A stretch of 53,504 nucleotides of DNA, from the IMG/VR virus record IMGVR_UViG_3300032883_000088; one strand, given 5' to 3'. This stretch comes from a virus. Within the stretch, counting starts at the first letter, position 1. Every line of letters starts with the position of its first letter. This document shows, piece by piece, positions 1-53,504 of the stretch. The translations under genes were made by a program, and so were the position numbers. Below the pieces are notes generated by a model that made no database searches, was not told the origin of the DNA, and saw only the letters and a list, made by a program, of their open reading frames with translations.

Positions 1-123
1 GTTAGGGTACTTACATCATCCAGGATTTTCCCGGCCTCAATAGCGGAGGCATCCGACAACGCGACCGCATCGGCCAGGGGTCTTCCTGCCGCAATGATTA
101 CCGTATCCAACAGGGCAACTGTA
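1..123. repeat. Terminal direct repeat, copy 1 of 2 (identical to 53382..53504); circular-closure overlap, unit genome length 53381 bp
   Basis: All 123 bases are identical in the two copies; a minus-strand ORF reads through the join in frame. Confidence 0.95.
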
Positions 124-935
124 TCAAAAAACCTGTGCCCCGCCTCAAAGGTTTCGGATAGGGTGATCGTTTCGGCCAAGAACTTCCCAACCGTAACGGT
201 TACCGTGTCCGACAAAGTAACCGCATCGGAAAGGTCTCTTCCCAATACAATGAGCGCGGCATCCGATAAGGTAACCGTTTCGGCCAGAGGTTTTCCAACC
301 GCAAGAACTTCTACATCCGACAGGGTTACCGCATCAGGAAGCCCCTGCCCCACCACGATAGTTACCGCATCCAATAGCGTAATTGGATCGGCAGGAACCT
401 TTCCCATGCCGACGATGAGGCCATCAGACAAGATGGCCGAATCATCAAGGTTCTTACCTATCTTAGCAACGGAGGTGTCTAACGGGGCAACTGAGTCACC
501 AAGGGCCTTTCCTGTCTCGACCGCCACTGCGTCAGACAGGGTAACCGAGTCGCCAAGGACGATTGTTGGGGACTCCTGATCGGCGTCTCCTAGCGTAACC
601 GTATCCGCCAGGACCTTCCCCACCGTAACGGCCAGAGTATCCGATAGGGTAACCGTATTAGCGAGTGCCTTTGCCGTCCCAACAACGGGGGCCTCTAACA
701 GGGTAATCGAGTCGGATAACCCCAGTAGACGGCCCTGGTTCTCCACGGAGGCGGAAGCTAAGGTAACCGCGTCAGCTAAGACCTTCCCTACCTTAATGGT
801 TACCATGTCGGACAGGGAAACCCCGTCCGGCACCGTGGTTCCTACGGTCAGGTAGAGAACATCGGACAGGGAAACTCCATCCGACGAATCGGACAGGGAG
901 ACCCCGTCCGTGCTTGTCTTAGTTAGAGCAGGCAT
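1..935 (-). CDS. Repeat-rich fibrous virion protein, 5' part (ATG 935..933; continues past base 1 into 53381..53084; 410 aa in total)
   Basis: Hand translation of the minus strand: MPALTKTSTDGVSLSDSSDGVSLSDVLYLTVGTTVPDGVSLSDMVTIKVGKVLADAVTL... No in-frame stop from 935 to 1. The frame matches ORF 53084..53491 after subtracting 53381. Degenerate 12-residue (36-bp) repeats of the type G-K-x-L-A-D-x-V-T-L-S-D. Confidence 0.75.
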   Translation of the reverse strand, partial: MPALTKTSTDGVSLSDSSDGVSLSDVLYLTVGTTVPDGVSLSDMVTIKVGKVLADAVTLASASVENQGRLLGLSDSITLLEAPVVGTAKALANTVTLSDTLAVTVGKVLADTVTLGDADQESPTIVLGDSVTLSDAVAVETGKALGDSVAPLDTSVAKIGKNLDDSAILSDGLIVGMGKVPADPITLLDAVTIVVGQGLPDAVTLSDVEVLAVGKPLAETVTLSDAALIVLGRDLSDAVTLSDTVTVTVGKFLAETITLSETFEAGHRFFDTVALLDTVIIAAGRPLADAVALSDASAIEAGKILDDVSTL

Positions 936-939
936 TGCC

Positions 940-1407
940 CTAGCTTACAGTGATGGTCCAGGTGATCTGGAGGGTATCGAGCGCGCCCACGTTGATCGCG
1001 GGGAAGTTCGTACCAGCCCACATATTGAGCGTGTCCGGGGTCACTACGTCGAAGAGACCCGCCTCGGTGATGACACCTTCGGCTTCGCCCGCACCCCAGT
1101 CCCCAACCATCGTGACAACCGCACCCGTCCGCGTCTTGGTTGTGAAAGCAATCCGGCCAAGCGTTGTCCCGCCGACAGGAAGCTCATCACCGAGCTTGTC
1201 CGTAAGCCCGAAGCCGGTCGGCACGCCCTCGCCAATCGCCATCCACCCCGGTACAACATAGAGGGACGGGGTATCGAGAAGCTGCTCAGCCGTCCCTTCC
1301 AACCCCGCCGCCCCCATCGTATTGTGGACGCTCGCGTGCTTGACCGTACCATCCGGTCCCCGAACCACAATCTGCACGTTGTCCTTGAGAGTCGTCTTTG
1401 CCTTCAT
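940..1407 (-). CDS. Hypothetical virion-module protein (155 aa)
   Basis: ORF track; ATG preceded by AGGAAAAGG; lies between two fibre-like genes in the minus-strand late operon; no domain recognised. Confidence 0.6.
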   Translation of the reverse strand: MKAKTTLKDNVQIVVRGPDGTVKHASVHNTMGAAGLEGTAEQLLDTPSLYVVPGWMAIGEGVPTGFGLTDKLGDELPVGGTTLGRIAFTTKTRTGAVVTMVGDWGAGEAEGVITEAGLFDVVTPDTLNMWAGTNFPAINVGALDTLQITWTITVS

Positions 1408-6053: not shown

Positions 6054-6370
6054 TTCTTAGTCTCCTCTTTCTTTAGCACCTTCAACAGTTGGCGAACCGT
6101 CGCCGGGTTATCCTTTACGAACGCGGTAAGTCCCCGGCCTATGACTCCCGCCACAATTTCGTCGATCGTATCCCCCATCGGAACTGAGCACATCAACAGA
6201 TGAACTACCTCATGGAGCAAGGTTTCAATTTCCTGGGACGCCGGCATCCCCCCGCGTAGGTGTATCTCATTCTGCGATATGTGCGCCTCCCCTGACGCAT
6301 CCTTATCCGCCAGGTCGAACACGATCACCTCAACCCGATGCGGCCCGATGATAAGGTCGTCCCACTTCAA
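6041..6370 (-). CDS. Small HExxH (zinc-metallopeptidase-like) protein (109 aa)
   Basis: LLHEVVHLLM motif; ATGA start/stop overlap with the portal gene; sits between portal and scaffold. Confidence 0.45.
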   Translation of the reverse strand: MKWDDLIIGPHRVEVIVFDLADKDASGEAHISQNEIHLRGGMPASQEIETLLHEVVHLLMCSVPMGDTIDEIVAGVIGRGLTAFVKDNPATVRQLLKVLKKEETKKCQK

Positions 6371-9610: not shown

Positions 9611-11494
9611 TCAATACCCGTCCTCTCCCTGGTAGTCCCACTCCGCCTCTTCGTGCATTGCGTCCTCCATCGCCTCCTGCGCCGCGGTCCACACCTCGTC
9701 CGTCAACCGCCCGCACGCTGCGACCGCGTCCAGGTTGCTGAACCCATCGGGATCGTGTAGGTTCCCCTTTCTGAGTTCCGCCACAGGGTCGTAGTCTTGG
9801 GCCACGCTAATGGCCACTGGGGGCGCGCCCTTTGCAATTTGCTGGTGCATAGCAAGTGTATCAAGAATATCGTCATGTTCCAATAACCCCATGTCGTTCG
9901 TGAATAGGCTGATCTGGTTCCAAAGTTCGCGGTAGGCCATCTCGGTCCCCCGGTCGCTCGGAATCTTTACGCGGTACTGATCGAACCGCCAACTCATCCC
10001 CTTTATCTTCTCCGCCTTGCTCAGCGAGTGGGGGAACTTTATCGGAATCACTGCCGGCATCGTGTGCGTTTCGCCCCCGCCGCACGCGGCCCCAAGTACC
10101 GGAGTCAAATCTAAGTGGAACCTCTCGAATGCCTCCATCTGCAACGGGTAGGCTTCGATCCCGATAACGTACACCTGCCATTTGACTGCCATCTCCCCAA
10201 TTATTTTTACAACCTCCGACCTTTGGGCCTTGCCTAACCAGGCATCCAGGGAATACAATGTGTTAGGATGGTCGGACCCTGATTCGAGGCCTAGAACATG
10301 AACCGCGCTAAAGTCCGAAAGTTCATTGACGGTTGGCGCATAGTCAACCGTGATAAACCGATACATCCCTCGTACTACGTCAGCAAACGGACGGAGCAAC
10401 TTACGCAATTTTGGGGCTACGGATGTACTGCCGTCCACGTTCGTAGTTGTCTCAAGCGATGTTACCTGGTGGGTAACGATCTTCGCATTCGATGACAGGG
10501 GCTTTGTGACCGCGGCCTCGTCCCGGTCCTCCAGAAAGTAGGTAGTCAGTTGCGGGTGCATTCGCAAAAGAACCTCATCCTCGGTGGACGGCTTATTGAG
10601 GCATTGCGCCGAGAAAGCGGAGGCCCCAAGCCTCTTTTTCTCGGATTCTATCCACTCTGGCCCCATCGCGGCCCAGTTAAGGTCGTGGACATTCATCAGC
10701 GTGCGATGGAAGAACTCCTTCACCCGCGGGTCCTCGGTGGAGTATAACCAGTAGATGAACATTTGCCGCGAGTACAACGTCCCGATCACGCGCATCGGAA
10801 CTATAGACCCCGGACTCCGCGCCATCGGAAGTAACCCGTTGAAGAAGAAGCTATGAAACCCCTGCCTTTCATCGGCCGGATTAACCACCTGGTCTTTACT
10901 TTTTTCAACGTCGTCAAGGACGATCAAGCCCGACGGCCGTGTTCCGAGGCTCGCACCTTTGATCGGTTTCGCAGCCAACTTGCAGCCAGTGGTTGTCTCC
11001 AATACCGAACCCCGGTTCCACGTACCAGACCCTTTTTTGGGCTTCAAGCGGCCAAAATCATCAATGATGCGTGCGTTGTTTTCAATCTGCCCCGCAACTC
11101 GTCCTAGCCGATCAGTACAAAACTCCCTAGTCGCAAGGAAGAGAGCGCATTGCCAATTCCTCCGTGAAACAAGGTTACGGAGAATGTCCTCCAGATTGAT
11201 TGTGGTCTTACACGTCCCACGCGGGCAGGCTGTGATAAGCCGAGGATATGAATACCAGTCGCGCACCCAACCGGCATGTGCCGGCGGAGATTCAACGAAA
11301 CCATCGGCGTACCATCCACTTTCCGGCGGCGTCAGGTAGTAATTTCGGAAATACTCCCACGACGTTACCTCCAGGTCCGCGTCCCCGCCCAGGCTTACGG
11401 CATTGACGCGGGCCATCCGCTGGCCACTCAGGTCCAATTCGTAATAGTCCGCGGGAAGCGGAAAGATCGGGGAGTCACGAAATACGACGGGCAC
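9611..11494 (-). CDS. terL: Terminase large subunit
   Basis: 627 aa; Walker A-like CPRGTCKT, Walker B LIVLDDVE, C-terminal nuclease-sized half; GTG start with GGAGG 5 nt upstream. Confidence 0.85.
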   Translation of the reverse strand: MPVVFRDSPIFPLPADYYELDLSGQRMARVNAVSLGGDADLEVTSWEYFRNYYLTPPESGWYADGFVESPPAHAGWVRDWYSYPRLITACPRGTCKTTINLEDILRNLVSRRNWQCALFLATREFCTDRLGRVAGQIENNARIIDDFGRLKPKKGSGTWNRGSVLETTTGCKLAAKPIKGASLGTRPSGLIVLDDVEKSKDQVVNPADERQGFHSFFFNGLLPMARSPGSIVPMRVIGTLYSRQMFIYWLYSTEDPRVKEFFHRTLMNVHDLNWAAMGPEWIESEKKRLGASAFSAQCLNKPSTEDEVLLRMHPQLTTYFLEDRDEAAVTKPLSSNAKIVTHQVTSLETTTNVDGSTSVAPKLRKLLRPFADVVRGMYRFITVDYAPTVNELSDFSAVHVLGLESGSDHPNTLYSLDAWLGKAQRSEVVKIIGEMAVKWQVYVIGIEAYPLQMEAFERFHLDLTPVLGAACGGGETHTMPAVIPIKFPHSLSKAEKIKGMSWRFDQYRVKIPSDRGTEMAYRELWNQISLFTNDMGLLEHDDILDTLAMHQQIAKGAPPVAISVAQDYDPVAELRKGNLHDPDGFSNLDAVAACGRLTDEVWTAAQEAMEDAMHEEAEWDYQGEDGY

Positions 11495-17595: not shown

Positions 17596-18072
17596 TTACG
17601 CTTCGTTTTCATTGCACACCTTCTCCAAGCGCAGGAAGTACCGCCCACGCACTCGGTCTGTCCGCACAATCCGCAGACCCAGCCGCTGCGCTACCGCAAT
17701 CGACCGCGCATTCTGTGGTGCGATCCACGCAGAGATCACGTCCGCGCCCAGTTCCGTTTCCGCGATCCGCATCGCTATTCCCGCCCACGCGCGCCCGTAG
17801 CCCCATCCGCGGTATTCCGGCTGCACGATCTCCCGGCACACCCACACATTCTTTCCCCTCTCCGCGCGGGACGCTTGGAGTTCGCAGTACCCAGACACCC
17901 CAGTAACGCCCGAAAACACGATCGCCCGCGTGCGGTGCGCCGCCCACGAGACAACCTGCTCGGCTGTCAAGGGAAACTTGGCCACGGGGTCCAGCAGGCT
18001 GAGTTCGGCCGGCGTGCGGACCCAGCTTGCGATGGTCGCAGCGTCGTCAGGTTGGAAACGGCGGTAGGTCAT
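17596..18072 (-). CDS. GNAT-family N-acetyltransferase (158 aa)
   Basis: QPEYRGWGYGRAW acetyl-CoA-binding motif, GNAT-sized; ATG 18072 coincides with +1 of promoter 18079..18107. Confidence 0.8.
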   Translation of the reverse strand: MTYRRFQPDDAATIASWVRTPAELSLLDPVAKFPLTAEQVVSWAAHRTRAIVFSGVTGVSGYCELQASRAERGKNVWVCREIVQPEYRGWGYGRAWAGIAMRIAETELGADVISAWIAPQNARSIAVAQRLGLRIVRTDRVRGRYFLRLEKVCNENEA

Positions 18073-18078
18073 ACCCCC

Positions 18079-18107
18079 AGCATACCACATTCCGAGTGCA
18101 CTGTCAA
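18079..18107 (-). promoter_or_regulatory. Sigma70-type promoter TTGACA-17 bp-(TGg)TATGCT; ATG 18072 is 6 nt after the -10 (leaderless GNAT mRNA)
   Basis: Minus strand ggcTTGACAgtgcactcggaatgtggTATGCTgggggtATG. Confidence 0.6.
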
Positions 18108-18439: not shown

Positions 18440-18440
18440 C

Positions 18441-18470
18441 AAAAAAGGCAGGGACCGCTAAGTCCCTACC
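18441..18470 (-). terminator. Rho-independent terminator ending the leftward early operon: GGUAGGGAC-UUAGCG-GUCCCUGCC-UUUUUU
   Basis: 9-bp stem (one U-G wobble, only on the minus strand), 6-nt loop, T6 tract; lies 127 nt downstream of the stop of 18597..18854. Confidence 0.7.
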
Positions 18471-18490
18471 TACGTAAGTCCCTACCTACG
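18459..18490. repeat. Tandem direct repeat 2 x 16 bp (taagtccctacctacg) plus partial third copy; duplicates the 5' arm of the terminator
   Basis: 18459..18474 = 18475..18490 exactly. Confidence 0.9.
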
Positions 18491-18596
18491 TAAGCCCCCA
18501 CTTATCGAACCCTAGATCGTCTTGAACCCCATCCCATTGCACCGACCCCTCTTGCCGCGTTCGGCTCCGCTTAGAGTAGCACGGACCTAGATCGCG

Positions 18597-20545: not shown

Positions 20546-21034
20546 TTAACGTACTCCCGAACCATCGTCAACTCCCGTCGCAAGTCGAGACGGCAACTTG
20601 CGAAACTCGGTGACACGTACTTGGAATTGCCCTTCCCCTGTAATCCCATACGCGAATCCCGGTCGCAATTCCGCCTTGAGTTGTTCGATCGTCAACGCCG
20701 ATTCACCCGGCTGTCCAAGTCCCGACGAATCACAGAACAGTTCCCGCACGACTTCCCATCCATCGGCAAGCGGATAATTCCCCGGCCCACCAGACGTATC
20801 GTACTCCCCCACCTTGGGGAAGGGAAACGGTGGATAGCCGTCAATTTCCGCCTGCGTCTCGATAAGGTATGGTTCGGTCGTCGTATCTGCATCCATCGCC
20901 TCCGCCTCTGCCAGCAACGCCTTTGCGTGCCGCTCCGCTTCCTTCTCACATGCGTAGCACACTTCGCACCTCCACTTCCCATTCGGTAACACCCGAACGT
21001 CTAAACACCCACATTTTTCGCAACGGCCAAACAT
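20546..21034 (-). CDS. Hypothetical protein with an N-terminal zinc ribbon (162 aa)
   Basis: CEKCGC ... CEVCYAC; ATG 21034 lies 2 nt after the upstream stop; the track start 21361 runs through the non-coding gap. Confidence 0.55.
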   Translation of the reverse strand: MFGRCEKCGCLDVRVLPNGKWRCEVCYACEKEAERHAKALLAEAEAMDADTTTEPYLIETQAEIDGYPPFPFPKVGEYDTSGGPGNYPLADGWEVVRELFCDSSGLGQPGESALTIEQLKAELRPGFAYGITGEGQFQVRVTEFRKLPSRLATGVDDGSGVR

Positions 21035-21036
21035 CG

Positions 21037-21222
21037 TCAACCCCCCGTTGTTAGCTTCTCTGCCGAGTACTGCCCGCAGTTCGGGCATATACCCCATACC
21101 CAGTTCCAACCGAGCACGCTGCACTCTCGGCAGTAATGCGTACAGTCTACCGCCTCCCCGCGTAAGATCGCGGCGTCCACTTCCGTAACCGATACGAATG
21201 TAGGCACATTCTCGACCTTCAT
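21037..21222 (-). CDS. Zinc-ribbon protein (61 aa)
   Basis: CRECS ... CPNCG; ATG 21222 preceded by AAGGGGGAAGCG. Confidence 0.5.
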   Translation of the reverse strand: MKVENVPTFVSVTEVDAAILRGEAVDCTHYCRECSVLGWNWVWGICPNCGQYSAEKLTTGG

Positions 21223-21567
21223 CGCTTCCCCCTTTCCATCTATCAGACCTCCCACCGCACGCCCGGTACGGAAGCAGCCGTATGGTAGGCCAACCCGCTT
21301 TCGCCGTAGCTTGTTCTAGAATTACTACGGCAATAGAATGGTTCGCTGTTACCGGACGCACGGTGGGAGGTCCGAGAACGGTTGCCTGTGCAACCCCCTA
21401 CAATCTAGCGGGTATATTCTCGGACGCCCAAAGGGGGAATAGCCGTCGGCATTTTTACGCCTATGTTATCGACTCTTTCGCACGGTTGGCGATTCTTGGA
21501 AACTTCCCATCCGTGTCTCCGTTTTTCCCCACTACGTACGGGGTTGTCGGTCCCACCGCCTCCCCGC
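21223..21567 (-). ncRNA. Structured untranslated RNA region (long 5' leader or stand-alone ncRNA) downstream of promoter 21574..21602
   Basis: No convincing ORF; own promoter; 23-bp helix and several local hairpins (see findings). Confidence 0.4.
21246..21372 (-). other. 23-bp RNA helix (arms 21350..21372 and 21246..21268) closing an 81-nt insert
   Basis: 20 Watson-Crick pairs plus 3 pairs that are G-U on the minus-strand RNA but C-A on the plus strand. Confidence 0.6.
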
Positions 21568-21573
21568 ACCACA

Positions 21574-21602
21574 AGCATACCACACGCAGCCCGCGTTGTC
21601 AA
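21574..21602 (-). promoter_or_regulatory. Sigma70-type promoter TTGACA-17 bp-(TGg)TATGCT overlapping the stop codon of 21599..21802
   Basis: Minus strand tTTGACAacgcgggctgcgtgtggTATGCT. Confidence 0.55.
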
Positions 21603-21802
21603 ACTAAATCTCCGTAAATTCCCTCCCATCCGCAATCGTCGTCCTGACAATGTGCGGAATCATAGTCCGCCGGTTGAAAATCCCCAATCGGCTCCCAGCC
21701 TAAGTCGCCGACAATTCCAATCTGAGTTTGTTTCGCGGGAGTAAACGTGCATAGCGAATCCACGTTGACCGACCCGCGACATTCTGGACACTTAGTTCCC
21801 AT
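21599..21802 (-). CDS. Zinc-ribbon protein (67 aa)
   Basis: CPEC ... ; AGGGGG 9 nt upstream of the ATG; promoter 21828..21856. Confidence 0.5.
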   Translation of the reverse strand: MGTKCPECRGSVNVDSLCTFTPAKQTQIGIVGDLGWEPIGDFQPADYDSAHCQDDDCGWEGIYGDLV

Positions 21803-21827
21803 CGTTCATTACCCCCTAACTACCCCT

Positions 21828-21856
21828 AGTCTACGCTGTGGATTCCCGGTTGTCAA
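21828..21856 (-). promoter_or_regulatory. Sigma70-type promoter TTGACA-17 bp-TAGACT
   Basis: Minus strand cgcTTGACAaccgggaatccacagcgTAGACTagg. Confidence 0.55.
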
Positions 21857-21883
21857 GCGGTCGGAGAGGATTTTTTTTGTGCG

Positions 21884-21913
21884 TTGACCGACCCCCACTA
21901 CGCGGCATATAAT
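21884..21913 (+). promoter_or_regulatory. Plus-strand (antisense-oriented) promoter TTGACC-18 bp-TATAAT, back to back with 21828..21856
   Basis: Plus strand gcgTTGACCgacccccactacgcggcaTATAATtgc; T8 tract 21871..21878 between the two -35 boxes. Confidence 0.45.
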
Positions 21914-21958
21914 TGCCGACCGTAGGGGGCGGCTTGATCGGACTAGACCTGTTCGCAG

Positions 21959-21992
21959 GTTATAGGACTATCGCCGCCCCGCGTTATAGGAC
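21959..21992. repeat. Two 10-bp direct repeats gttataggac (21959..21968, 21983..21992); minus strand GTCCTATAAC
   Basis: Exact copies 24 bp apart; related to the CCTATAAT -10 boxes at 5571, 9338, 26321 and 46186. Confidence 0.8.
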
Positions 21993-24123: not shown

Positions 24124-24391
24124 GTTCGTTTCCTCCCGCGTTTGCATATTCCCGAATGGTATTCTTGATCTGCTCCAATGGCGTATCCGAGTACCACATT
24201 TCGGACAGTTTGAACAGTTGCTCACCAGTCAAACCTGTGTAGCCATCTGGAATCCCCCCAAGGTCCACGGAAAACGTCATCGACCCCCCACGTTCTTTAT
24301 AGGCTCGACAAGCAACCCGTTCTTGCCTACTTTCCTCTTCGGTCATTTGATTGGCCCACTCAAGACAGTTCCTTTTCTGTTCTGCATTCAT
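24116..24391 (-). CDS. Hypothetical protein (91 aa), leaderless start
   Basis: ATG 24391 lies 6 nt after the -10 of promoter 24398..24426; MNAEQKRNCLEWANQMTEEE... Confidence 0.5.
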   Translation of the reverse strand: MNAEQKRNCLEWANQMTEEESRQERVACRAYKERGGSMTFSVDLGGIPDGYTGLTGEQLFKLSEMWYSDTPLEQIKNTIREYANAGGNERG

Positions 24392-24397
24392 ACCAAC

Positions 24398-24426
24398 AGC
24401 ATACCCCCAGATCGCGGTCGAGTCAA
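24398..24426 (-). promoter_or_regulatory. Sigma70-type promoter TTGACT-17 bp-TATGCT, then 6 nt, then ATG 24391
   Basis: Minus strand cTTGACTcgaccgcgatctgggggTATGCTgttggtATG. Confidence 0.55.
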
Positions 24427-24673: not shown

Positions 24674-24689
24674 GCCGTTTGCAAAGAAA

Positions 24690-24733
24690 ATCTCCCCCAT
24701 TGTCGCCTGGCGGCGAACTGCAACAGGGGAGAT
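24690..24733 (-). other. Nested stem-loop: outer 8-bp stem (atctcccc/ggggagat) enclosing a variant of the conserved hairpin (tcgcc-tggc-ggcga, 24703..24716)
   Basis: Inverted repeats read directly from the sequence in the 116-bp gap 24639..24754. Confidence 0.55.
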
Positions 24734-24754
24734 CGTTCTTACCGGACCTTCGGA

Positions 24755-26354: not shown

Positions 26355-26382
26355 TTGACTTCCCTCCGCGTTTGGGTATAGT
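26355..26382 (+). promoter_or_regulatory. Rightward promoter TTGACT-16 bp-TATAGT, then 6 nt, then ATG 26389 (leaderless polymerase mRNA)
   Basis: Plus strand ccTTGACTtccctccgcgtttgggTATAGTctgttgATG. Confidence 0.6.
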
Positions 26383-26388
26383 CTGTTG

Positions 26389-28926
26389 ATGGGGGTTGAA
26401 CATGCAACAGAACCTTTGGCTCCCGGATACTCTACGCGGTTGGTGCCGATGGTACGATACGGAAGCGGGAAGCACGATACGGCCTTGCTCGTGGTAGGAG
26501 AAGCCCCCGGAAAAGACGAGGACGAAAAGGGGGAACCATTCGTAGGTAAATCGGGAAAGCTATTACGGGGAGCGTATCTCGATCATTGGGAGTTTGGAAA
26601 CTATGCGTCCTTGTATCTTACCAATTCGGTACGATGCCGTCCCCCGGACAATCGCACTCCTCGGCCATCGGAGATTAAGGCCCATCATCAATTGTTGGAG
26701 TTGGATATCCGTGGGTTGGCAGAGAAGTATTCGAGTATTGTTGTGCTTGCCGTAGGAGCAACAGCGTGCAAAGCGTTTGGGATGAAATCCTTATCCGCTG
26801 CGTTCAAGCAACAAGGTGGGGAAGTCCTCTTCGGGAATGTCATAGTCCGCTTTTTCGCCACGTGGCACCCTGCTTTCGTCTTACGCGATCCGTCAGTTGG
26901 AACGTCCTTAGAGTCGCATTTGGCCTGTCTGATGCGGCATTTGCGTGGTTCAACGGAGCAACCCGTCGTTACCTCAAAAAGCAATTGGCTCGTCGCGCCC
27001 GCGCACGTGCCGCACAAAGGAGTAGTGTGTCTTGACATCGAAACCTATGGGTGCATTTCTGGGGTGGAGCAAAGCCAGTTTCACCCTGCGAAAGCAGTTT
27101 ATTGGGACGGCGTCCGGCCGGCTAACGCAATTATATCGTGCGCCCTCTCCTGGGATGGCGGCTCCGCTTTCTACAATCTGGGACTACAACATCATCGGCG
27201 CGCGTTGTGCGCGGTCTTGAGGCAGGTACAGCATGAACAATGTGTTCTCCTACTCCAAAATGCAACATTTGATCTCACGTTCCTACGGGCATTCCTCCCT
27301 GCTTGCCGTCCATATCTGGAGCTACCACTTCGCCTGGCGGACCTTATGGTATCCAGCTACCTTGTTGATGAGGCTCGCCCAGAGCGGTCACTCAAAGCCC
27401 TCGCCCCCCTTCTGATGGGACAGCAAGGATTGTACAAAGACGAATGGCGGTCGTTGAACTTTACCGGCCCGGACGACCCGGAACTTGCACGTTACAACAT
27501 AGCAGATACGGAGCGTACGTATGGATGCAATAAGATTTGTCGTGAGTCCTACCCCAGCATGTACGGAATTGAAACGGGCAAAGGATCGGAGTATTCAGAT
27601 CGTTGGTATTCCGATCTCCTGCACCTCGTCACATGGATGTCTGAGGCCGGTGTACTTTTGGATGTACCGGCACTCACGCTTTTGGACCGACACCTTTCCG
27701 TTCGTAAGTCTCGCATCGAACGATTGGCGAAGTCCACCCTCGATCTAACGCTTGAGGGCAAAGGCTCAGACAAATCCAAACGCGGCGCGGTCTCCGCTGC
27801 GGTTAAAAGCATTCCGTGCGCCGATGACGGAGAACTCGTGAGCGATCGTATCAAACTCACCAAAACGGGAAAGATGCCTTACGATGAAGAAACTCGTAAT
27901 CTGCTCGTACCATTACTCCGAACGAATGGCGATCGTCGCACTCTTCGCGCGTTACATGTTATTGGGTTGCACCAAAATGTGGCTAAGGTATTGTCCACCT
28001 ACACTGGCCCGATGCTTCGCGGTCGCAAGCGCGGGGCGACCTGGGACAACTCGCCCCGCGTGATTGACGGCCGGGTGTACCCAACGTGGTATCCGGTCCC
28101 CCGCGAGTTCGGGGCGGGTGAATCAGGCGGCACCAAGCAAGGTCGCCTCTCCGCCAAGTCCCCATCCGTCCCCACATTCCCGCCAGCGCTCAAGAAACTC
28201 ATCCAGGTGGACGCTTGGGTCGATTACTCCGGTATCGAACTCCGTACAGCAGCATTGATGAGCGGGGACCCGGTGATGATGTCCGAGCTTTCCGGCCCGG
28301 ACGGCGACCTGCACGCGCGGACGGCCCGGCTGATCTTCGGCGACGATATCGTGAACCACCCCCTGTTCCGCGCGGTATACCGCCAAGCTGGAAAAAAAAC
28401 CAACTTTCTCATGCTCTACTTAGGTGGCGCGGAGAAACTGCGGCACACGCTTTTAACCAAGGTCGGACTTGACTATCCGATCGAGAAGTGCTATGCTGCC
28501 ATAGATGGATTCTGGTCAACGTACCACGTACTGCGCGCGTTTATCGACTCCGCGGTCGCCTCCGTGCGCAAAAAGGGCTTCTATGAACTTCCGCTCACCG
28601 GCCAATCGCGCCTTTTCGCTCGCGCGAACCCACCGATCAATGAGGTTGCATCCTTTCTCTTCCAGCCTATTGCCGCTAACATTACTCTTTCTGCCCAGTA
28701 TCATCTTTGGGCAACCGCGAAACGAGAGAACGTGGCGATGACCTGCCCCGTGAACATCTACGACGCCATCGGCATCGTGCTCCACCCCCAAGAACGCCGT
28801 CGGTACAGTATGAAGCGCGCATCGAAGCTCATGGTGGACATCCTTCCGAACCCCCCGTATTACCGCGATCTGTGCGCCCACCTCGGCCGCACGCTACCAT
28901 TGGCTTACGAGGTAACGAATGGATAG
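26389..28926 (+). CDS. Family-A DNA polymerase with N-terminal UDG-family-4-like domain and 3'-5' exonuclease domain (845 aa)
   Basis: UDG-like: GEAPGKDEDEKGEPFVGKSGKLL ... HPAFVLRDPS. Exo: VCLDIETYG, QNATFDLTFL. Pol motif A VDYSGIELR, motif B RQAGKKTNFLMLYLGG, motif C region VNIYDAI. Confidence 0.9.
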   Translation: MGVEHATEPLAPGYSTRLVPMVRYGSGKHDTALLVVGEAPGKDEDEKGEPFVGKSGKLLRGAYLDHWEFGNYASLYLTNSVRCRPPDNRTPRPSEIKAHHQLLELDIRGLAEKYSSIVVLAVGATACKAFGMKSLSAAFKQQGGEVLFGNVIVRFFATWHPAFVLRDPSVGTSLESHLACLMRHLRGSTEQPVVTSKSNWLVAPAHVPHKGVVCLDIETYGCISGVEQSQFHPAKAVYWDGVRPANAIISCALSWDGGSAFYNLGLQHHRRALCAVLRQVQHEQCVLLLQNATFDLTFLRAFLPACRPYLELPLRLADLMVSSYLVDEARPERSLKALAPLLMGQQGLYKDEWRSLNFTGPDDPELARYNIADTERTYGCNKICRESYPSMYGIETGKGSEYSDRWYSDLLHLVTWMSEAGVLLDVPALTLLDRHLSVRKSRIERLAKSTLDLTLEGKGSDKSKRGAVSAAVKSIPCADDGELVSDRIKLTKTGKMPYDEETRNLLVPLLRTNGDRRTLRALHVIGLHQNVAKVLSTYTGPMLRGRKRGATWDNSPRVIDGRVYPTWYPVPREFGAGESGGTKQGRLSAKSPSVPTFPPALKKLIQVDAWVDYSGIELRTAALMSGDPVMMSELSGPDGDLHARTARLIFGDDIVNHPLFRAVYRQAGKKTNFLMLYLGGAEKLRHTLLTKVGLDYPIEKCYAAIDGFWSTYHVLRAFIDSAVASVRKKGFYELPLTGQSRLFARANPPINEVASFLFQPIAANITLSAQYHLWATAKRENVAMTCPVNIYDAIGIVLHPQERRRYSMKRASKLMVDILPNPPYYRDLCAHLGRTLPLAYEVTNG
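28469..28497 (+). promoter_or_regulatory. Promoter-like element inside the polymerase gene: TTGACT-17 bp-(TGc)TATGCT
   Basis: Plus strand acTTGACTatccgatcgagaagtgcTATGCTgccatagATG. Confidence 0.35.
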
Positions 28927-30097
28927 CAATGTACAACGTACGCTGGATATGCTCCGTGTACACCTACGAAACCCGGTCGGTGATTTACGGAAAAAGGTCG
29001 CCGCTGAACTTGGATTGTCTCTTCATGCGGCTCGGCAAACCCTTGCTATGGCTCGTGTTCTCGACTCATCTCCAGTTGTAGTACCTATAGACCCCAAGGA
29101 CCCGTTGTTCCGCTCGCGGTTGGTACGCGAGTTGCGTCGGCCGATCACGCCTGCCAAGCTCGCCGCCAAGTTGGGCGTTCTCGTTTCTGATGTGGGGAAC
29201 ACACTTGAGGACCTTGAAGGTAGTGGCTACATCATACTTCGCGTTGGTAATAGCGTATCGATTGGGACTTCCGTACAACAGAGTTGCGACCACGTAGTAC
29301 AGGCAAATCACTTTATCGGAAAGCCCCTATCATTCGGCGTGGTCGCGGATATGCACCTATGTTCTACCTCCGAGCGCCTAGATGTACTTGAAGCCGCATA
29401 CGACGAGTTCGCGCACCGCAAGATCAACACGGTCCTCTGCCCCGGTAACTACGTAGACGGCGAGTGTCGGTACAACGCACACGAGCTCAAGGCCCATGGG
29501 GTCGCGGACCAGTGCTATTACGCACTAGACCATTGGCCCCAGCGGAAGGGAATCAAGACCTACTATGTCGATGGTGACGATCACGAGGGTTGGTTCCAGC
29601 AACGCGAGGGCATCGAGTTTGGTCGATTTTTACATCTTGAAGCTCTGGCCCGCGGCCGCAAGGACCTCACGTATCTGGGTTACATGGAGGCAGACTTTGA
29701 ACTCAAGGCTCCCGGCGGGTCATCTGTTGTTAAACTGATCCACGCCGGCGGAGGTTCCAGTTATGCGTATAGTTACTCTTCCCAGAAGTTGGCTGAATCT
29801 TTTCAGGGGGGAGAGAAGCCGGCTGTGGCTATTATCGGACACTACCACAAGCAGGAATACTGTTTTCCGCGGAACGTGCATTGCATTCAGTCAGGCTGCT
29901 GTCAAGATCAGACTCGGTTTATGAGGAAGCGTAAACTCGCCGCGCACGTCGGGTTCGCGGTCATTACCTTGCAACAGGACACCAAGGGCAGCATCTCGCG
30001 GTTCGGGGTCGAGTTCTTCCCCTTCTGGGACCGTGGATATTACCTATCACGTGATGGACAAGCCCTCGCCACGCGGCTACAATCCCGTGATAGGTAA
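28919..30097 (+). CDS. Calcineurin-like metallophosphoesterase (Mre11/SbcD-like) with an N-terminal winged-helix domain (392 aa)
   Basis: VVADMHLCS, GNYVDGE, GDDHEGW, IHAGGG, IGHYH; N-terminus PITPAKLAAKLGVLVSDVGNTLEDLEGSGYIIL. Confidence 0.75.
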   Translation: MDSNVQRTLDMLRVHLRNPVGDLRKKVAAELGLSLHAARQTLAMARVLDSSPVVVPIDPKDPLFRSRLVRELRRPITPAKLAAKLGVLVSDVGNTLEDLEGSGYIILRVGNSVSIGTSVQQSCDHVVQANHFIGKPLSFGVVADMHLCSTSERLDVLEAAYDEFAHRKINTVLCPGNYVDGECRYNAHELKAHGVADQCYYALDHWPQRKGIKTYYVDGDDHEGWFQQREGIEFGRFLHLEALARGRKDLTYLGYMEADFELKAPGGSSVVKLIHAGGGSSYAYSYSSQKLAESFQGGEKPAVAIIGHYHKQEYCFPRNVHCIQSGCCQDQTRFMRKRKLAAHVGFAVITLQQDTKGSISRFGVEFFPFWDRGYYLSRDGQALATRLQSRDR

Positions 30098-30100
30098 TGT

Positions 30101-46217: not shown

Positions 46218-48764
46218 CTACCCCTGACGCGACTCCGCCTCTGAGGCCGACAACTGGCCCTGGACCAGGATCGCATCCACTTTGTAGTCCATATTGGACC
46301 CATAGGACGCCAGGAAGGGGAATATCTTGTTCTTGGCACGCGCCGCCTGGACGACCACCTTGTCCGGGATGACGCTTACCCGCACGGGCGACGACACAAG
46401 CTCCTGGGACCCGGAGTGCAACCCCATATAGACGTAGGCATTCACATCACTGGACGTAACCTCTCCCTGTAGGTCGCTAAGTGAGGCTGTAATGTTGGAC
46501 GCGATCTTCCGTACGAATGGATCATCTGCCCCCAGCCCGGACAGCCGGGGGAAGCGGAGGTTCACGACGACGGGGGCGACAGAGTAACGGTCTCCGATTG
46601 TGAGGGTCCCGGAGAGGCCGGAGACGGTGAGATCGGTCCCGGAGTTGCGGACGGTGATGGTTGCCGTCTCGCCACTGCGAGCGCCAGAGAGGATATAAAC
46701 CTTGAAACCGACGCAACCAACTGGGAAAGCAGCGGCAGTATTGATGATATGAGTTGCAGAACCCGTAGTAACTTGTCCATTCACAGTCTCCGATGCGGAC
46801 GCTCCGCACATGGTCGCCTTGCCCGCCTCGCGGAAGGCATCCACCGTGTGGGTTTTCCCCGCCGAGTCAACCAGGTACGCCCGCTGCGCTCCATTGTTGG
46901 TCTTTACATCCGGCCCGCTCGCAATGAAAGACCAGGGTGCATCCACAATTCGTGTGACCGCCCCGGTGGATTCCCAAAGAAGAACGAGTTCGTGGAGAGA
47001 AGTGTTGAGAAATACGATAGCTCCCGCAAACCCATCGTAGCCCACTTGAACGGAGGATAGAGTTCCAGCCCAGCGCTTGTCATCGAACACGAGCCGATTG
47101 AGTAAGCGTACATTTCGGACCTCCCCGGTCGCGCCGTCGATCTCTTTTACGCCCGTGCGCGTGACGACGTACAACACATCGCCCACGCAGCACGCGGCAA
47201 AGCGCCCAACGCACCCCAGCGGGTACGCAATGCGCGTGATGGACAGCGACGTGCCCGCGCGCAGGATGCGGTAGATGCCCATGTTGGTCACGGCGAATGC
47301 AGCCGTGGACCCGGCAAACAATCCTAGCACCCGCTCGGACGGATCGTCAAGTTCCTCGTAGTTCAAAACCGGAAAATTCTCGACCTCTCCCTGCGAGATA
47401 GCGGACCAACAGATGGCTTCCGGCAGTTGCTCGACGTGCTTCCAGTCCTGATCGGGCGTCACCGGCTCCCGCGGGTCCGTCACGCCAATCAGCATACCGT
47501 CGAACCCCACCATCCGCTTCATGCGCGGGGCCGCGCCGACTTCATTGGCGACCGCATCGTACTGTAGTTGCGTCATTAGCCCGTCATCGGTCATGCTCTG
47601 TATGTTACGCACGTTTGGCGGGGATACGGACACGGTATCGTTTGTGTAGTTAAATTGCCACAGTTGGACGCCACTGCCGCTATTGTAGAGGTCCTTTTCC
47701 TCATACTCCCGTACAAGGTAGAGATGCTGAGTGGCCTGGTACTTTCCTGAAACCAAGACGGCTCCCTGGTCATTACGCGGAGAGCGCCATAACCGAAACC
47801 CATCAACATGCCCAATCCCCCAATGAACGGGTGCGGTTAAGGCATTTGCGTTGCCCATGATCTGATTCGTACTTCCTCCTCCGCTATCCGGCAACCTACA
47901 TCTTGCTATGGCCCACCGTAGGGCGGAGAGGGGAGTACCGAGCGCCTTGACTGTAGCCCAACGGAGGTAGGAACGCAACCCATGCTTCCGACTGATAAGC
48001 TCACAGGCGTAAGTATACTCGCCGCTAAGAATAACGGGGTCCCCAATTCCAATGGTTTCGGCATCAAATGCGTAGTCTCCGGGGTTCAGGCCCGGTCCCC
48101 CAATACCATTAAGGTCCGTAGCAAGTGTACGTACGGGTAGCGCGCCCATTATGCGCCCCTGCATTCCCCCAACGTACTTGTCCCAATCGTTGATCTTGAA
48201 GTCATAGAAGTACGCCTTATTATACGGTGCGGCCTTGTCTACGAGTCTCGTCAGGAACGTACCGTTTGCGTAGGTATCCCCGGAGTTCACGAGGTAGGCA
48301 TAGCGCCCAAGGTAGGTAATGTCGTAGTCCTCGAACGTAGTCGGCCGAAAGTCATCCCAGGACCGGAAATCCTCCAACATTACGACATCGGACGCCCCGG
48401 TTTCCGAATCGCGGTAGGCGAAGTACAACGCGCTGCCGGTCCCCGCCTGGTTGTCCCCGAACATCATCAACCCACGAATGGCGTGCGGGGAAATTCCCTT
48501 ACGCAGTGAGATGTACTTGACAAGGGAGATATTAGCAATCGCCGGTATGGTGGTAACGCCGGACTGTGGAGACGGAACCCCGTGGACGGATTGCGCACCA
48601 AAGCCGGGGAACGTACGCACAGACCCCTCAAACCGCCCATCCACCCCCACGGCATCGACGAGCATCCGCGGATCGGTCGCAGTGTCGTCCATACGCAGGT
48701 CCATACCGGGGAACCGCGCTTCATAGTACCACTTAGCTTGCGGGTCATGCCTTCTTTCGGGCAC
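46218..48764 (-). CDS. Large tail protein (848 aa), candidate nozzle/tail-tubular-B-like
   Basis: Size, beta-rich sequence and position after a small (158 aa) tail gene; no motif proof. Confidence 0.45.
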   Translation of the reverse strand: MPERRHDPQAKWYYEARFPGMDLRMDDTATDPRMLVDAVGVDGRFEGSVRTFPGFGAQSVHGVPSPQSGVTTIPAIANISLVKYISLRKGISPHAIRGLMMFGDNQAGTGSALYFAYRDSETGASDVVMLEDFRSWDDFRPTTFEDYDITYLGRYAYLVNSGDTYANGTFLTRLVDKAAPYNKAYFYDFKINDWDKYVGGMQGRIMGALPVRTLATDLNGIGGPGLNPGDYAFDAETIGIGDPVILSGEYTYACELISRKHGLRSYLRWATVKALGTPLSALRWAIARCRLPDSGGGSTNQIMGNANALTAPVHWGIGHVDGFRLWRSPRNDQGAVLVSGKYQATQHLYLVREYEEKDLYNSGSGVQLWQFNYTNDTVSVSPPNVRNIQSMTDDGLMTQLQYDAVANEVGAAPRMKRMVGFDGMLIGVTDPREPVTPDQDWKHVEQLPEAICWSAISQGEVENFPVLNYEELDDPSERVLGLFAGSTAAFAVTNMGIYRILRAGTSLSITRIAYPLGCVGRFAACCVGDVLYVVTRTGVKEIDGATGEVRNVRLLNRLVFDDKRWAGTLSSVQVGYDGFAGAIVFLNTSLHELVLLWESTGAVTRIVDAPWSFIASGPDVKTNNGAQRAYLVDSAGKTHTVDAFREAGKATMCGASASETVNGQVTTGSATHIINTAAAFPVGCVGFKVYILSGARSGETATITVRNSGTDLTVSGLSGTLTIGDRYSVAPVVVNLRFPRLSGLGADDPFVRKIASNITASLSDLQGEVTSSDVNAYVYMGLHSGSQELVSSPVRVSVIPDKVVVQAARAKNKIFPFLASYGSNMDYKVDAILVQGQLSASEAESRQG

Positions 48765-53083: not shown

Positions 53084-53504
53084 TTAAACGTCCGTGAGGC
53101 CGTAGGTAACCGGCTCGTACAGATCAAGAAGGGGGTCGAACTCCTCCCCCGAACTTTCGTAATCAGTTAAGGTGATCGAGTCCCCGAAGTTCTTCCTCGG
53201 AGTCTTTCGATCGGCGCTCACCAACGTAACTGTATCGGCAAACCACTTCCTTACCACAGAGGCCGGAGTATCCGCGGGGGTAACCGTATCGGCGAATGCT
53301 TTCCCTACCTTGATGGTAAGGGCATCGGCTAGGGATGTTGAATCGGCCAGATTTCCCCCAACTACAATGACCACCGCGTCCGTTAGGGTACTTACATCAT
53401 CCAGGATTTTCCCGGCCTCAATAGCGGAGGCATCCGACAACGCGACCGCATCGGCCAGGGGTCTTCCTGCCGCAATGATTACCGTATCCAACAGGGCAAC
53501 TGTA
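53084..53504 (-). CDS. Repeat-rich fibrous virion protein, 3' part (same gene as 1..935; 53382..53504 duplicates 1..123)
   Basis: ORF track 53084..53491 begins at a TTG only because the window ends; the frame continues from 935..1. Confidence 0.75.
   Translation of the reverse strand, partial: TVALLDTVIIAAGRPLADAVALSDASAIEAGKILDDVSTLTDAVVIVVGGNLADSTSLADALTIKVGKAFADTVTPADTPASVVRKWFADTVTLVSADRKTPRKNFGDSITLTDYESSGEEFDPLLDLYEPVTYGLTDV
53382..53504. repeat. Terminal direct repeat, copy 2 of 2
   Basis: Identical to 1..123. Confidence 0.95.

Follow-up and report, generated by a model that had tools for sequence, protein, structure and literature searches.

In phages T7 and T3, hairpins that follow an early promoter of the host type and precede an early gene (R0.3, R1.1, and others) are cut by the RNase III of the host to give the mature early mRNA; in T7, such sites lie between every early gene, and internal loops direct single cuts. 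In rRNA operon processing stems, sequences flanking a large insert form a long-range helix, and its G·U pairs leave the repeat imperfect at the DNA level. The Correia (CREE) elements, multi-copy and mobile, are about 100-150 nt long, with inverted ends of about 26 bp, RNase III-sensitive hairpin transcripts, and TA duplications. Here we analyze an element of a known kind, a probable phage early-leader hairpin for processing or translational control, in IMG/VR virus record IMGVR_UViG_3300032883_000088. The whole stretch of 53,504 nucleotides is hereinafter the window, and the element, with its 26-bp helix H1, occupies a gap between two minus-strand early genes that encode zinc-ribbon proteins of 67 and 61 amino acids (aa).

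RNase III sites have been described in the lambda N leader and in T7 and T3 early RNAs, and cleavage by this enzyme frees an occluded ribosome-binding site (RBS) in adhE and lambda cIII (PMC5371410). The processing stems of rRNA operons are likewise an RNase III substrate (PMC3074117). The ideal substrate of bacterial RNase III is 22 bp long (PMC3867540). Rules for antideterminant base pairs at proximal-box positions come from the E. coli enzyme (PMC3867540); the specificity of RNase III in the host of this phage may differ. The locus in the window resembles adhE, lambda cIII, and the lambda N leader in that a long predicted 5' leader follows a strong promoter, the Shine-Dalgarno (SD) sequence is predicted to pair with an upstream segment, and a duplex of at least 20 bp lies just upstream of the SD, such that a cut would free the RBS; as in the lambda leaders, all this is placed before an early phage gene. 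Unlike these leaders, to which it has no sequence or Rfam relationship, the element contains an unusually long, perfect helix of 26-29 bp whose apical insert is apparently expendable, predicted occlusion differs among its copies, and cleavage is a prediction. In contrast to the T7 sites, there is a single site per genome, with a continuous duplex. A long-range helix around an insert, with G·U pairs that render the repeat imperfect as DNA, is shared with the rRNA stems, whereas the enclosed sequence is short, non-conserved, and apparently functionless. Unlike Correia elements, the element is single-copy and syntenic and lacks the duplication.

A long helix conserved in related phages

An earlier note on this DNA, made from the sequence alone, described a 23-bp inverted repeat (21372..21350 with 21268..21246) that includes three G·U pairs on the minus strand. 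Reading the minus strand bears this out, and the helix extends to 26 uninterrupted bp (21375..21350 with 21268..21243), four of them G·U. H1 is the longest inverted repeat of the window. When the entire window was shuffled 40 times with dinucleotides preserved, helices of Watson-Crick and G·U pairs (loop of at most 200 nt) reached at most 15-18 bp, and the best such helix on the real plus strand is 15 bp. The strand asymmetry extends to the predicted folds, with z-scores of -8.2 on the minus strand vs -4.2 on the plus strand for the 133-nt element, -5.1 vs -2.7 for the whole leader, and -2.2 vs +0.27 for the 81-nt insert alone. The predicted fold, in which H1 accounts for about -50 kcal/mol, has the geometry of a three-way junction. 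The local hairpin in the insert that the note had pointed out (GCCGUAG..CUACGGC) is real as well and comprises 10 bp, of which two are G·U.

The gap is poor in open reading frames (ORFs), as the note had claimed. The ORFs that cross it, namely, one of 81 aa (21405..21650), its 57-aa version starting from ATG 21578, and a 111-aa ORF on the plus strand, score -0.05 to -0.11 per codon (codon-usage log-odds), similar to wrong-frame ORFs (-0.13 +/- 0.13) and below all called genes (at least +0.05), and none of the three has a Pfam match. An ORF of 31-40 aa (21461..21583) has a borderline codon score (+0.07); it starts within the promoter or just 2 nt past an SD, and lies mostly in a segment that the relatives lack and, therefore, is not conserved. 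A mini-ORF, MERGKR (AUG 21239, with a stop overlapping AUG 21222), was rejected because the relatives have GAUAACG there. A conserved translated ORF spanning the gap, which would have argued against an RNA element, was sought in the relatives and not found; at the gap, they show large indels and no called genes.

Searches for known RNAs were negative: across the whole window, nothing reached the gathering score of an Rfam 15 family, and, at E-values up to 10 in 21100..21900, the one match was a PrrB/RsmZ fragment of 11.7 bits that is due to chance and lies outside the element. There was no tRNA or tmRNA. The 3' arm of H1 is directly followed by GAUAGAUGGAAAGG; H1 lacks the combination of a GC-rich hairpin and an immediate U-tract that characterizes intrinsic terminators and attenuators and is not in the list produced by the terminator scan. 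The intrinsic terminators at ~18440-18470 and 24689-24734 look quite unlike it. A genome-wide scan of fold z-scores used segments straddling the element and is informative for terminators only.

Homologs of the locus were reached through protein searches with the flanking genes. The 67-aa gene led to L095, a 509-nt ENA contig encoding a 68% identical relative, and a 162-aa gene led to L096 and L097 (syntenic phage contigs from Logan), L098, and L099, to which L100 is identical. Related uncultured phages contain four further versions of the element, one per genome: those in L097, L098, and L099 are complete, and that in L095 is cut off within the 5' arm; L096 ends at the 5' hairpin and C-run block with which the element starts. 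BLAST and a covariance model, R1, detected exactly one element per locus, on the gene strand (150-185 bits in sense vs 24-38 bits in antisense), and no copies in the more distant L008 and L009 or in unrelated control loci.

All versions lie on the same strand as the gene, between a conserved promoter and the same zinc-ribbon gene family. Each of the four complete copies is followed by a homologous gene for a small zinc-ribbon protein, which is 72% identical in the window and L099 and has a longer variant in L097 and L098; the possibility that the first gene, of 61 aa, is an ORFan was discarded, given that homologs exist that were uncalled or missed by the word filter. The leader stays with the zinc-ribbon gene throughout, with the gene order around this module varying: a 138-aa gene follows the element in the window and L097 and precedes it in L095, L096, and L098, and, in L096, the promoter and the leader are separated by an additional gene.

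The conservation of the arms stands out against this background. In the three complete relatives, the arms are identical to those in the window at 51/52, 48/52, and 49/52 bases (98%, 92%, and 94%), compared with 52-62% identity at four-fold synonymous sites of the flanking genes between the window and each relative (P = 1e-13, 2e-9, and 1e-7). The insert, 81 nt in the window and 43, 30, and 75 nt in the complete relatives, is unalignable. With the arms conserved and the insert free to vary, the object of selection is the duplex rather than the enclosed sequence. Among the 26 pairs in four sequences, 103 of the 104 cells are standard pairs, and 22 pairs never vary. The 3' arm carries one or two transitions near its end in the relatives. 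All arm changes are transitions, and 4 of the 5 preserve pairing by way of G·U, solely on the strand that is transcribed. The four variable pairs change on one side only, within the series C-G / U·G / U-A: pairs 7 and 13 go from C-G and pair 8 from U-A to U·G, pair 16 goes from U·G to C-G, and the sole mispair is a C·A at pair 7 in L099. Every copy retains the G·U pairs at positions 3, 17, and 20, and the complementary strand would have 4-6 A·C mismatches in each. In L097 and L098, H1 is three bp longer at the apical end, and in each copy's own ensemble its probability is 0.93-1.0. In all complete copies, the helix is longer than the 22-bp benchmark for bacterial RNase III: it spans 26 bp in the window, likewise 26 bp, with one C·A, in L099, and 29 bp in L097 and L098.

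The conserved arms, wobble-only changes, free insert, and conserved promoter support the suggestion of the note that selection acts on a minus-strand RNA helix, and make it likely that H1 is a selected feature acting as RNA. The compensatory changes that the note had proposed to look for are distributed unevenly: with four complete sequences, none of the changes in H1 is double-sided, and 2-3 are found in a second helix, H2 (see below). The argument from strand-asymmetric wobble pairs, made on a single sequence, can be checked against homologs, and here it held up. We regard the element as a real, selected, and probably cis-regulatory RNA motif that is previously undescribed and absent from Rfam.

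Within reach of the databases, the element appears to be confined to a small clade of uncultured phages, which was seen in at least 8 samples. Arm-sequence probes yielded only chance matches in viral contigs, in GC-rich coding DNA, and invariant-core probes found no copies in 2.9 M viral contigs. The sole match in 185,579 genomes, a palindrome resembling a repetitive extragenic palindrome in a Quadrisphaera metagenome-assembled genome (MAG; >70% GC) with about 15 nt in common, was judged coincidental. In this MAG (JARICT010000036.1; L092 7719..7920), direct and inverted copies of GACCGGGGACCTCCCACCG lie downstream of a transporter gene, and the cluster forms a perfect hairpin of about 23 bp, with 15 nt in common with the phage arm. 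The IMG/VR relatives L008 and L009, with 57% identical polymerases, show no detectable homology in the early region and no analogous helix, and a metagenome scan with the polymerase alignment retrieved 80 unrelated loci through the generic motif of the UDG domain.

Predicted leader and its folding

The coordinates of the features are collected in the table. The promoter that the note had placed at 21602..21574, pointing into the gap (TTGACA-17-TATGCT), looks real: its architecture recurs in the window, its hexamers and their spacing are conserved in L095, L096, L097, and L098, and only the spacer bases vary. The TGA within the -35 hexamer is the stop codon of the 67-aa gene. Altogether, the window contains 24 sites of this promoter type, about twice the number in shuffles (11.1 +/- 2.5), and the promoter in the gap has TGTGGTATGCT in common with the one at 18107. 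Three such promoters are located exactly N6 before ATGs of called genes, namely, those at 24426 (ATG 24391), 18107 (ATG 18072), and 26355 (ATG 26389); the respective genes encode a 91-aa protein, a GNAT acetyltransferase, and the UDG-PolA polymerase. Judging from this spacing, these promoters (24426..24389, 18107..18070, and 26355..26391) apparently produce leaderless mRNAs, which hints at a host lineage in which leaderless translation is common. Because the three promoters sit exactly N6 upstream of ATGs, the transcription start was assigned to the seventh base after the -10 hexamer, and by the same rule the transcript of the gap is predicted to start near 21567, with a leader of 345 nt. Such a leader would be an outlier in this phage, for which leaderless transcripts or leaders of about 20 nt are predicted elsewhere.

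Features of the gap and the adjacent genes in the window (positions in the window)
Feature	Position	Strand	Remarks
67-aa zinc-ribbon gene, upstream	21599..21802	minus	stop codon inside the -35 hexamer; homologs in L095 (68% identical), L096, L097
Sigma-70-type promoter	21574..21602	minus	-35 TTGACA 21602..21597, 17-nt spacer, TG 21582..21581, -10 TATGCT 21579..21574
Predicted 5' leader, untranslated, ~345 nt	21223..21567	minus	no coding signal; indels in relatives
HP1, 5'-terminal hairpin GGGG..CCCC around GGCGGUGGGACCGACAA	21540..21565	minus	minimum free energy fold; conserved in relatives
Window-specific segment	21440..21539	minus	not conserved; missing from the alignments of relatives
Anti-SD UUCCCCCUUU	21430..21439	minus	predicted to pair with 21235..21226, probability 0.63-1.0
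H2 5' strand GUCCGAGAA	21417..21425	minus	within the conserved block GGGCGUCCGAGAA at 21429..21417
H2 3' strand UUCUCGGAC	21370..21378	minus	last six bases are the first six of the H1 5' arm
H1 5' arm UCGGACCUCCCACCGUGCGUCCGGUA	21350..21375	minus	identical in L097 and partial L095; 1 transition in L099, 3 in L098
H1 apical insert, 81 nt	21269..21349	minus	hypervariable, with its own local hairpins
H1 3' arm UACCGGGCGUGCGGUGGGAGGUCUGA	21243..21268	minus	first 18 nt invariant in 4/4 complete copies
SD region AAAGGGGGAA of the downstream gene	21226..21235	minus	third most sequestered of 59 genes in the same folding geometry
61-aa zinc-ribbon gene behind the leader	21037..21222, ATG 21222	minus	homologs after the element in L097, L098, L099

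The leader starts with HP1, and the motif GGGACC(G)ACAA, with flanking G- and C-runs, is present in L095-L099; in the relatives, the C-run of HP1 doubles as the anti-SD C-run. In the window, the anti-SD UUCCCCCUUU is perfectly complementary to the SD region AAAGGGGGAA, and the pairing probability of the G-run is about 1.0. The mean probability that the SD is unpaired is 0.09 (0.00 for the G-run), whereas, in 200 shuffles of the upstream 192 nt that left the helix intact, the mean was 0.57 and the minimum 0.19. For an RNA starting inside the 3' arm, as it would after a cut in H1, the computed value rises to 0.65-0.82. Pairing between the C-run and the G-run is found in relatives as well, including a U-A to C-G change in L098 (CCCCCUC/GAGGGGG), and the computed probability that the SD is unpaired is 0.18 in L099 and 0.26 in L098, so that occlusion is predicted in 3 of the 4 copies.

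H2 overlaps the 5' arm of H1 by 6 nt and, therefore, excludes H1 pairs 1-6. In L095, its strands read GUCCGAAAC and GUUUCGGAC, with 2-3 double-sided compensatory changes; there is one mismatch in L099. The covariation score of H2 was matched by 18 of 500 shuffles, with few sequences in the comparison. Unguided RNAalifold on the alignment stacked H2 on H1 pairs 7-27; in the single-sequence ensembles, the full 26-bp H1 is dominant, with probabilities of 0.81-0.96 for pairs 1-6 and 0.03-0.23 for H2. According to these models, two conserved partners that exclude each other are available to the base of H1, and H2 may form first during transcription. The note had also proposed that the upstream CGGTGGGA (21558..21551) pairs with the 5' arm in place of the 3' arm. 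This segment is present, in the loop of HP1; the fold computed for equilibrium has it in local pairs, where it is no competitor of the 26-bp helix. Pairing of CGGUGGGA with the 5' arm, assessed by eye, is weak: L095 and L099 keep it, L098 has a reduced form of 6 bp that includes one compensatory change, and L097 lacks it. It is H2, not the CGGUGGGA pairing, that is the competing helix with covariation.

The motif GGGACCGAUAAC in L008 (4100..4145, minus strand) resembles the HP1 loop motif GGGACCGACAAC; a terminator-like hairpin comes next and, after it, a promoter of its own. The 5' hairpin module may survive here as a remnant or serve another use.

A proposed processing site and the alternatives

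The gap is best explained as a promoter plus a long, structured 5' leader of the early zinc-ribbon gene, without an independent RNA gene. With moderate confidence, we consider the leader to be cis-acting, with H1 as an RNase III-type processing site that would tune the translation or stability of the early mRNA; RNase III processing was rated the most likely role because 26-29 bp exceeds the 22-bp ideal and leader precedents are established. In the proposed mechanism, host RNA polymerase would start near 21567, and the leader RNA would fold in the order HP1, the C-rich anti-SD, H2, and H1 with its dispensable, fast-evolving insert cap. The host's RNase III, which is specific for double-stranded RNA (dsRNA), would then cut H1, a perfect duplex of two and a half turns, parting the anti-SD-bearing leader from the coding part and changing the translation and/or stability of the early mRNA; in the phage of the window, the RBS is predicted to be exposed. 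Transcription of the region, the RNase III cut, and the direction of its effect are steps that we infer. That H1 is part of a transcript has indirect support in the conserved sigma-70-type promoter upstream on this strand and in the SD and gene downstream. Of the roles that the note had listed, an RNase III site and a translational leader fit best, whereas a riboswitch-like element and a stable small RNA (sRNA) are disfavored.

Several observations weigh against the processing site. In L097, occlusion of the SD is weak (0.72 unpaired). When H1 is deleted in silico, the SD is still occluded (0.06), so that H1 is not needed for the occlusion and is not simply a clamp. The duplex between the anti-SD and the SD could persist in trans after a cut (-19.4 kcal/mol). 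Across the four sequences, H1 shows no double-sided compensatory changes and, hence, no formal covariation, and the tight conservation of its arms could also reflect sequence-specific recognition. Finally, the comparison of H1 covers four complete sequences.

Recognition of this kind is the substance of one alternative, namely, that H1 is a sequence-specific operator, as an RNA or DNA hairpin, for a phage protein such as the adjoining zinc-ribbon one, in autoregulation of the early operon. The arms are near-invariant at a distance where synonymous sites are near saturation, three G·U pairs occupy fixed positions in all copies, and the element always travels with small zinc-ribbon genes despite the changes in gene order. 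Nevertheless, we consider an operator unlikely: no RNA-binding domain was recognized in the flanking proteins, the substitutions are exactly those expected for pairing-only selection via wobble intermediates, and a footprint of 26-29 bp would be very large for a 60-aa protein. More broadly, the near-invariant arms, fixed G·U pairs, and free insert fit a cargo-tolerant recognition module and, on this ground, H1 might be a sequence-specific dsRNA signal, either the zinc-ribbon operator or a decoy or trigger for a host dsRNA-sensing or defense factor; this, too, appears improbable. It is slightly more doubtful still that the inverted repeat acts as DNA, through a single-stranded hairpin or cruciform in replication priming, packaging, or recombination. 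Conservation of both arms, the status of G·T as the best-tolerated DNA mismatch, and the immateriality of the spacer to a hairpin are all compatible with such a role, but the strand favored is that of the transcript, a conserved promoter and the SD flank the element in every case, and neither the covarying H2 nor the pairing of the anti-SD would make sense except in RNA. Furthermore, GC skew has no inflection at the gap, the terminase gene is about 10 kb away, and the lead that pointed to a genome terminus proved to be an assembly artifact. In sample 3300038952, two contigs with 100% identity to the window terminate within the gap, where they overlap by 126 nt, and one of them opens with CCGATCT (the start of the Illumina adapter, reverse complement) abutting base 21588. 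The same signature of adapter and 126 nt recurs at window positions 1505/1380, and the adapter also caps a contig at 47223. A terminus in the gap was rejected because this pattern is a generic artifact of the assembly of that sample. metaSPAdes disconnects weak edges by removing one k-mer, which leaves K-1 overlaps (PMC5411777); K-1 is 126 here. Several contigs of this JGI sample (L010, L011, L093, and L094) carry 7-22 nt of Illumina adapter at their ends, with neighbors overlapping by exactly 126 nt. Such a pattern can pass for phage termini.

The remaining alternatives are less likely. If the long stem were cut on both sides, a hairpin RNA of about 100 nt, consisting of the insert and half of the stem, would be released, and the insert in the window is moderately structured on the minus strand (z = -2.2); however, release of a stable sRNA that acts in trans on host or phage transcripts is improbable, given that the insert is the least conserved part of the element (30-81 nt, unalignable), has no antisense match elsewhere in the window beyond chance 8-14-mers, and lacks an Rfam match. 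For a riboswitch or another ligand- or temperature-sensing switch, the three-way-junction geometry in the window and the competing pairings at the base of H1 (H2 vs pairs 1-6) could be adduced, but a helix of about -50 kcal/mol is much too stable for switching, P1, short and switchable in riboswitches, would here span 26-29 bp, the enclosed region that would form the ligand pocket is unconserved in length and sequence, and no Rfam family was found even at E = 10; such a switch is very improbable. The dimensions of the 133-nt unit with 26-bp terminal inverted repeats would fit a miniature inverted-repeat mobile element, Correia- or MITE-like, that landed in the intergenic region. This is the least credible of the alternatives, considering that there is a single copy per genome, always in the same syntenic place, with neither a target-site duplication nor a flanking direct repeat, and that the searches of 2.9 M viral contigs and 185,579 genomes yielded no copies and one unrelated match, respectively.

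Genome context and implications

The two termini of the window share 123 identical nt (1..123 = 53382..53504), indicating a circular assembly; the window is a complete, circularly assembled, phage-like genome of ~53,381 bp, with a GC content of 57%. It encodes a fusion of UDG with a family A polymerase (UDG-PolA; 26386..28926), the large terminase subunit (9611..11494), and nuclease, exonuclease, and Sak4-like proteins. Among GenBank phages, none matches the DNA of the gap region or the protein sequence of the terminase, and the polymerase has matches of only ~23% identity in a protein search. The phage clade with the UDG-PolA fusion is uncultured and has no cultured relatives.

The gap is set within a block of short early genes on the minus strand. 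CxxC...CxxC zinc-ribbon motifs occur in three successive small early proteins (21599..21802, 21037..21222, and 20546..21034), and further zinc-ribbon paralogs are encoded by L096 (101 aa) and by L097 and L098 (85-86 aa). By sequence, these tiny early proteins look like an expanding family, without Pfam or PHROG assignment.

Early transcription units on the minus strand are closed by intrinsic terminators with a GC stem and U-tract, at ~18440..18510, where the terminator is preceded by two direct repeats of CUUACGUAGGUAGGGA, and at 24689..24734. Upstream of the 67-aa gene, the gap 21828..21913 contains the promoter of this gene (TTGACA-17-TAGACT), with an A8 tract before it. A divergent plus-strand promoter-like site close to the consensus (TTGACC-18-TATAAT, 21884..21913) would be antisense to a 184-aa gene, and the plus strand of 21830..21990 folds with z = -3.2.

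Other structured sites were noticed in the same genome and in a distant relative. The ORF-poor minus strand of 740..940 contains three tandemly spaced copies of a hairpin motif, CGGAYGGrGUyUCCCUGUCCGA (fold z = -3.7). A near-perfect palindrome of 15-17 bp (ATTACCTATCACG..CGTGATAGGTAAT, 30037..30100) at the end of a metallophosphatase gene overlaps the promoter-like TGGACA-17-TACAAT at 30055 and is a candidate operator. In the early region of L009, a perfect 25-bp palindrome with a 26-nt center (6253..6328) is symmetric on both strands, each arm holding a TTGACA-like -35 and a TAGTCT -10 element, and looks like an operator at the DNA level or a face-to-face promoter pair.

With its 26-29-bp duplex, expendable loop, covarying competing helix, and anti-SD, the leader of the early zinc-ribbon gene is a compact test case. 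It raises the question of how phages that rely on host RNA polymerase and on mostly leaderless mRNAs may time or tune a single early gene by RNA processing.

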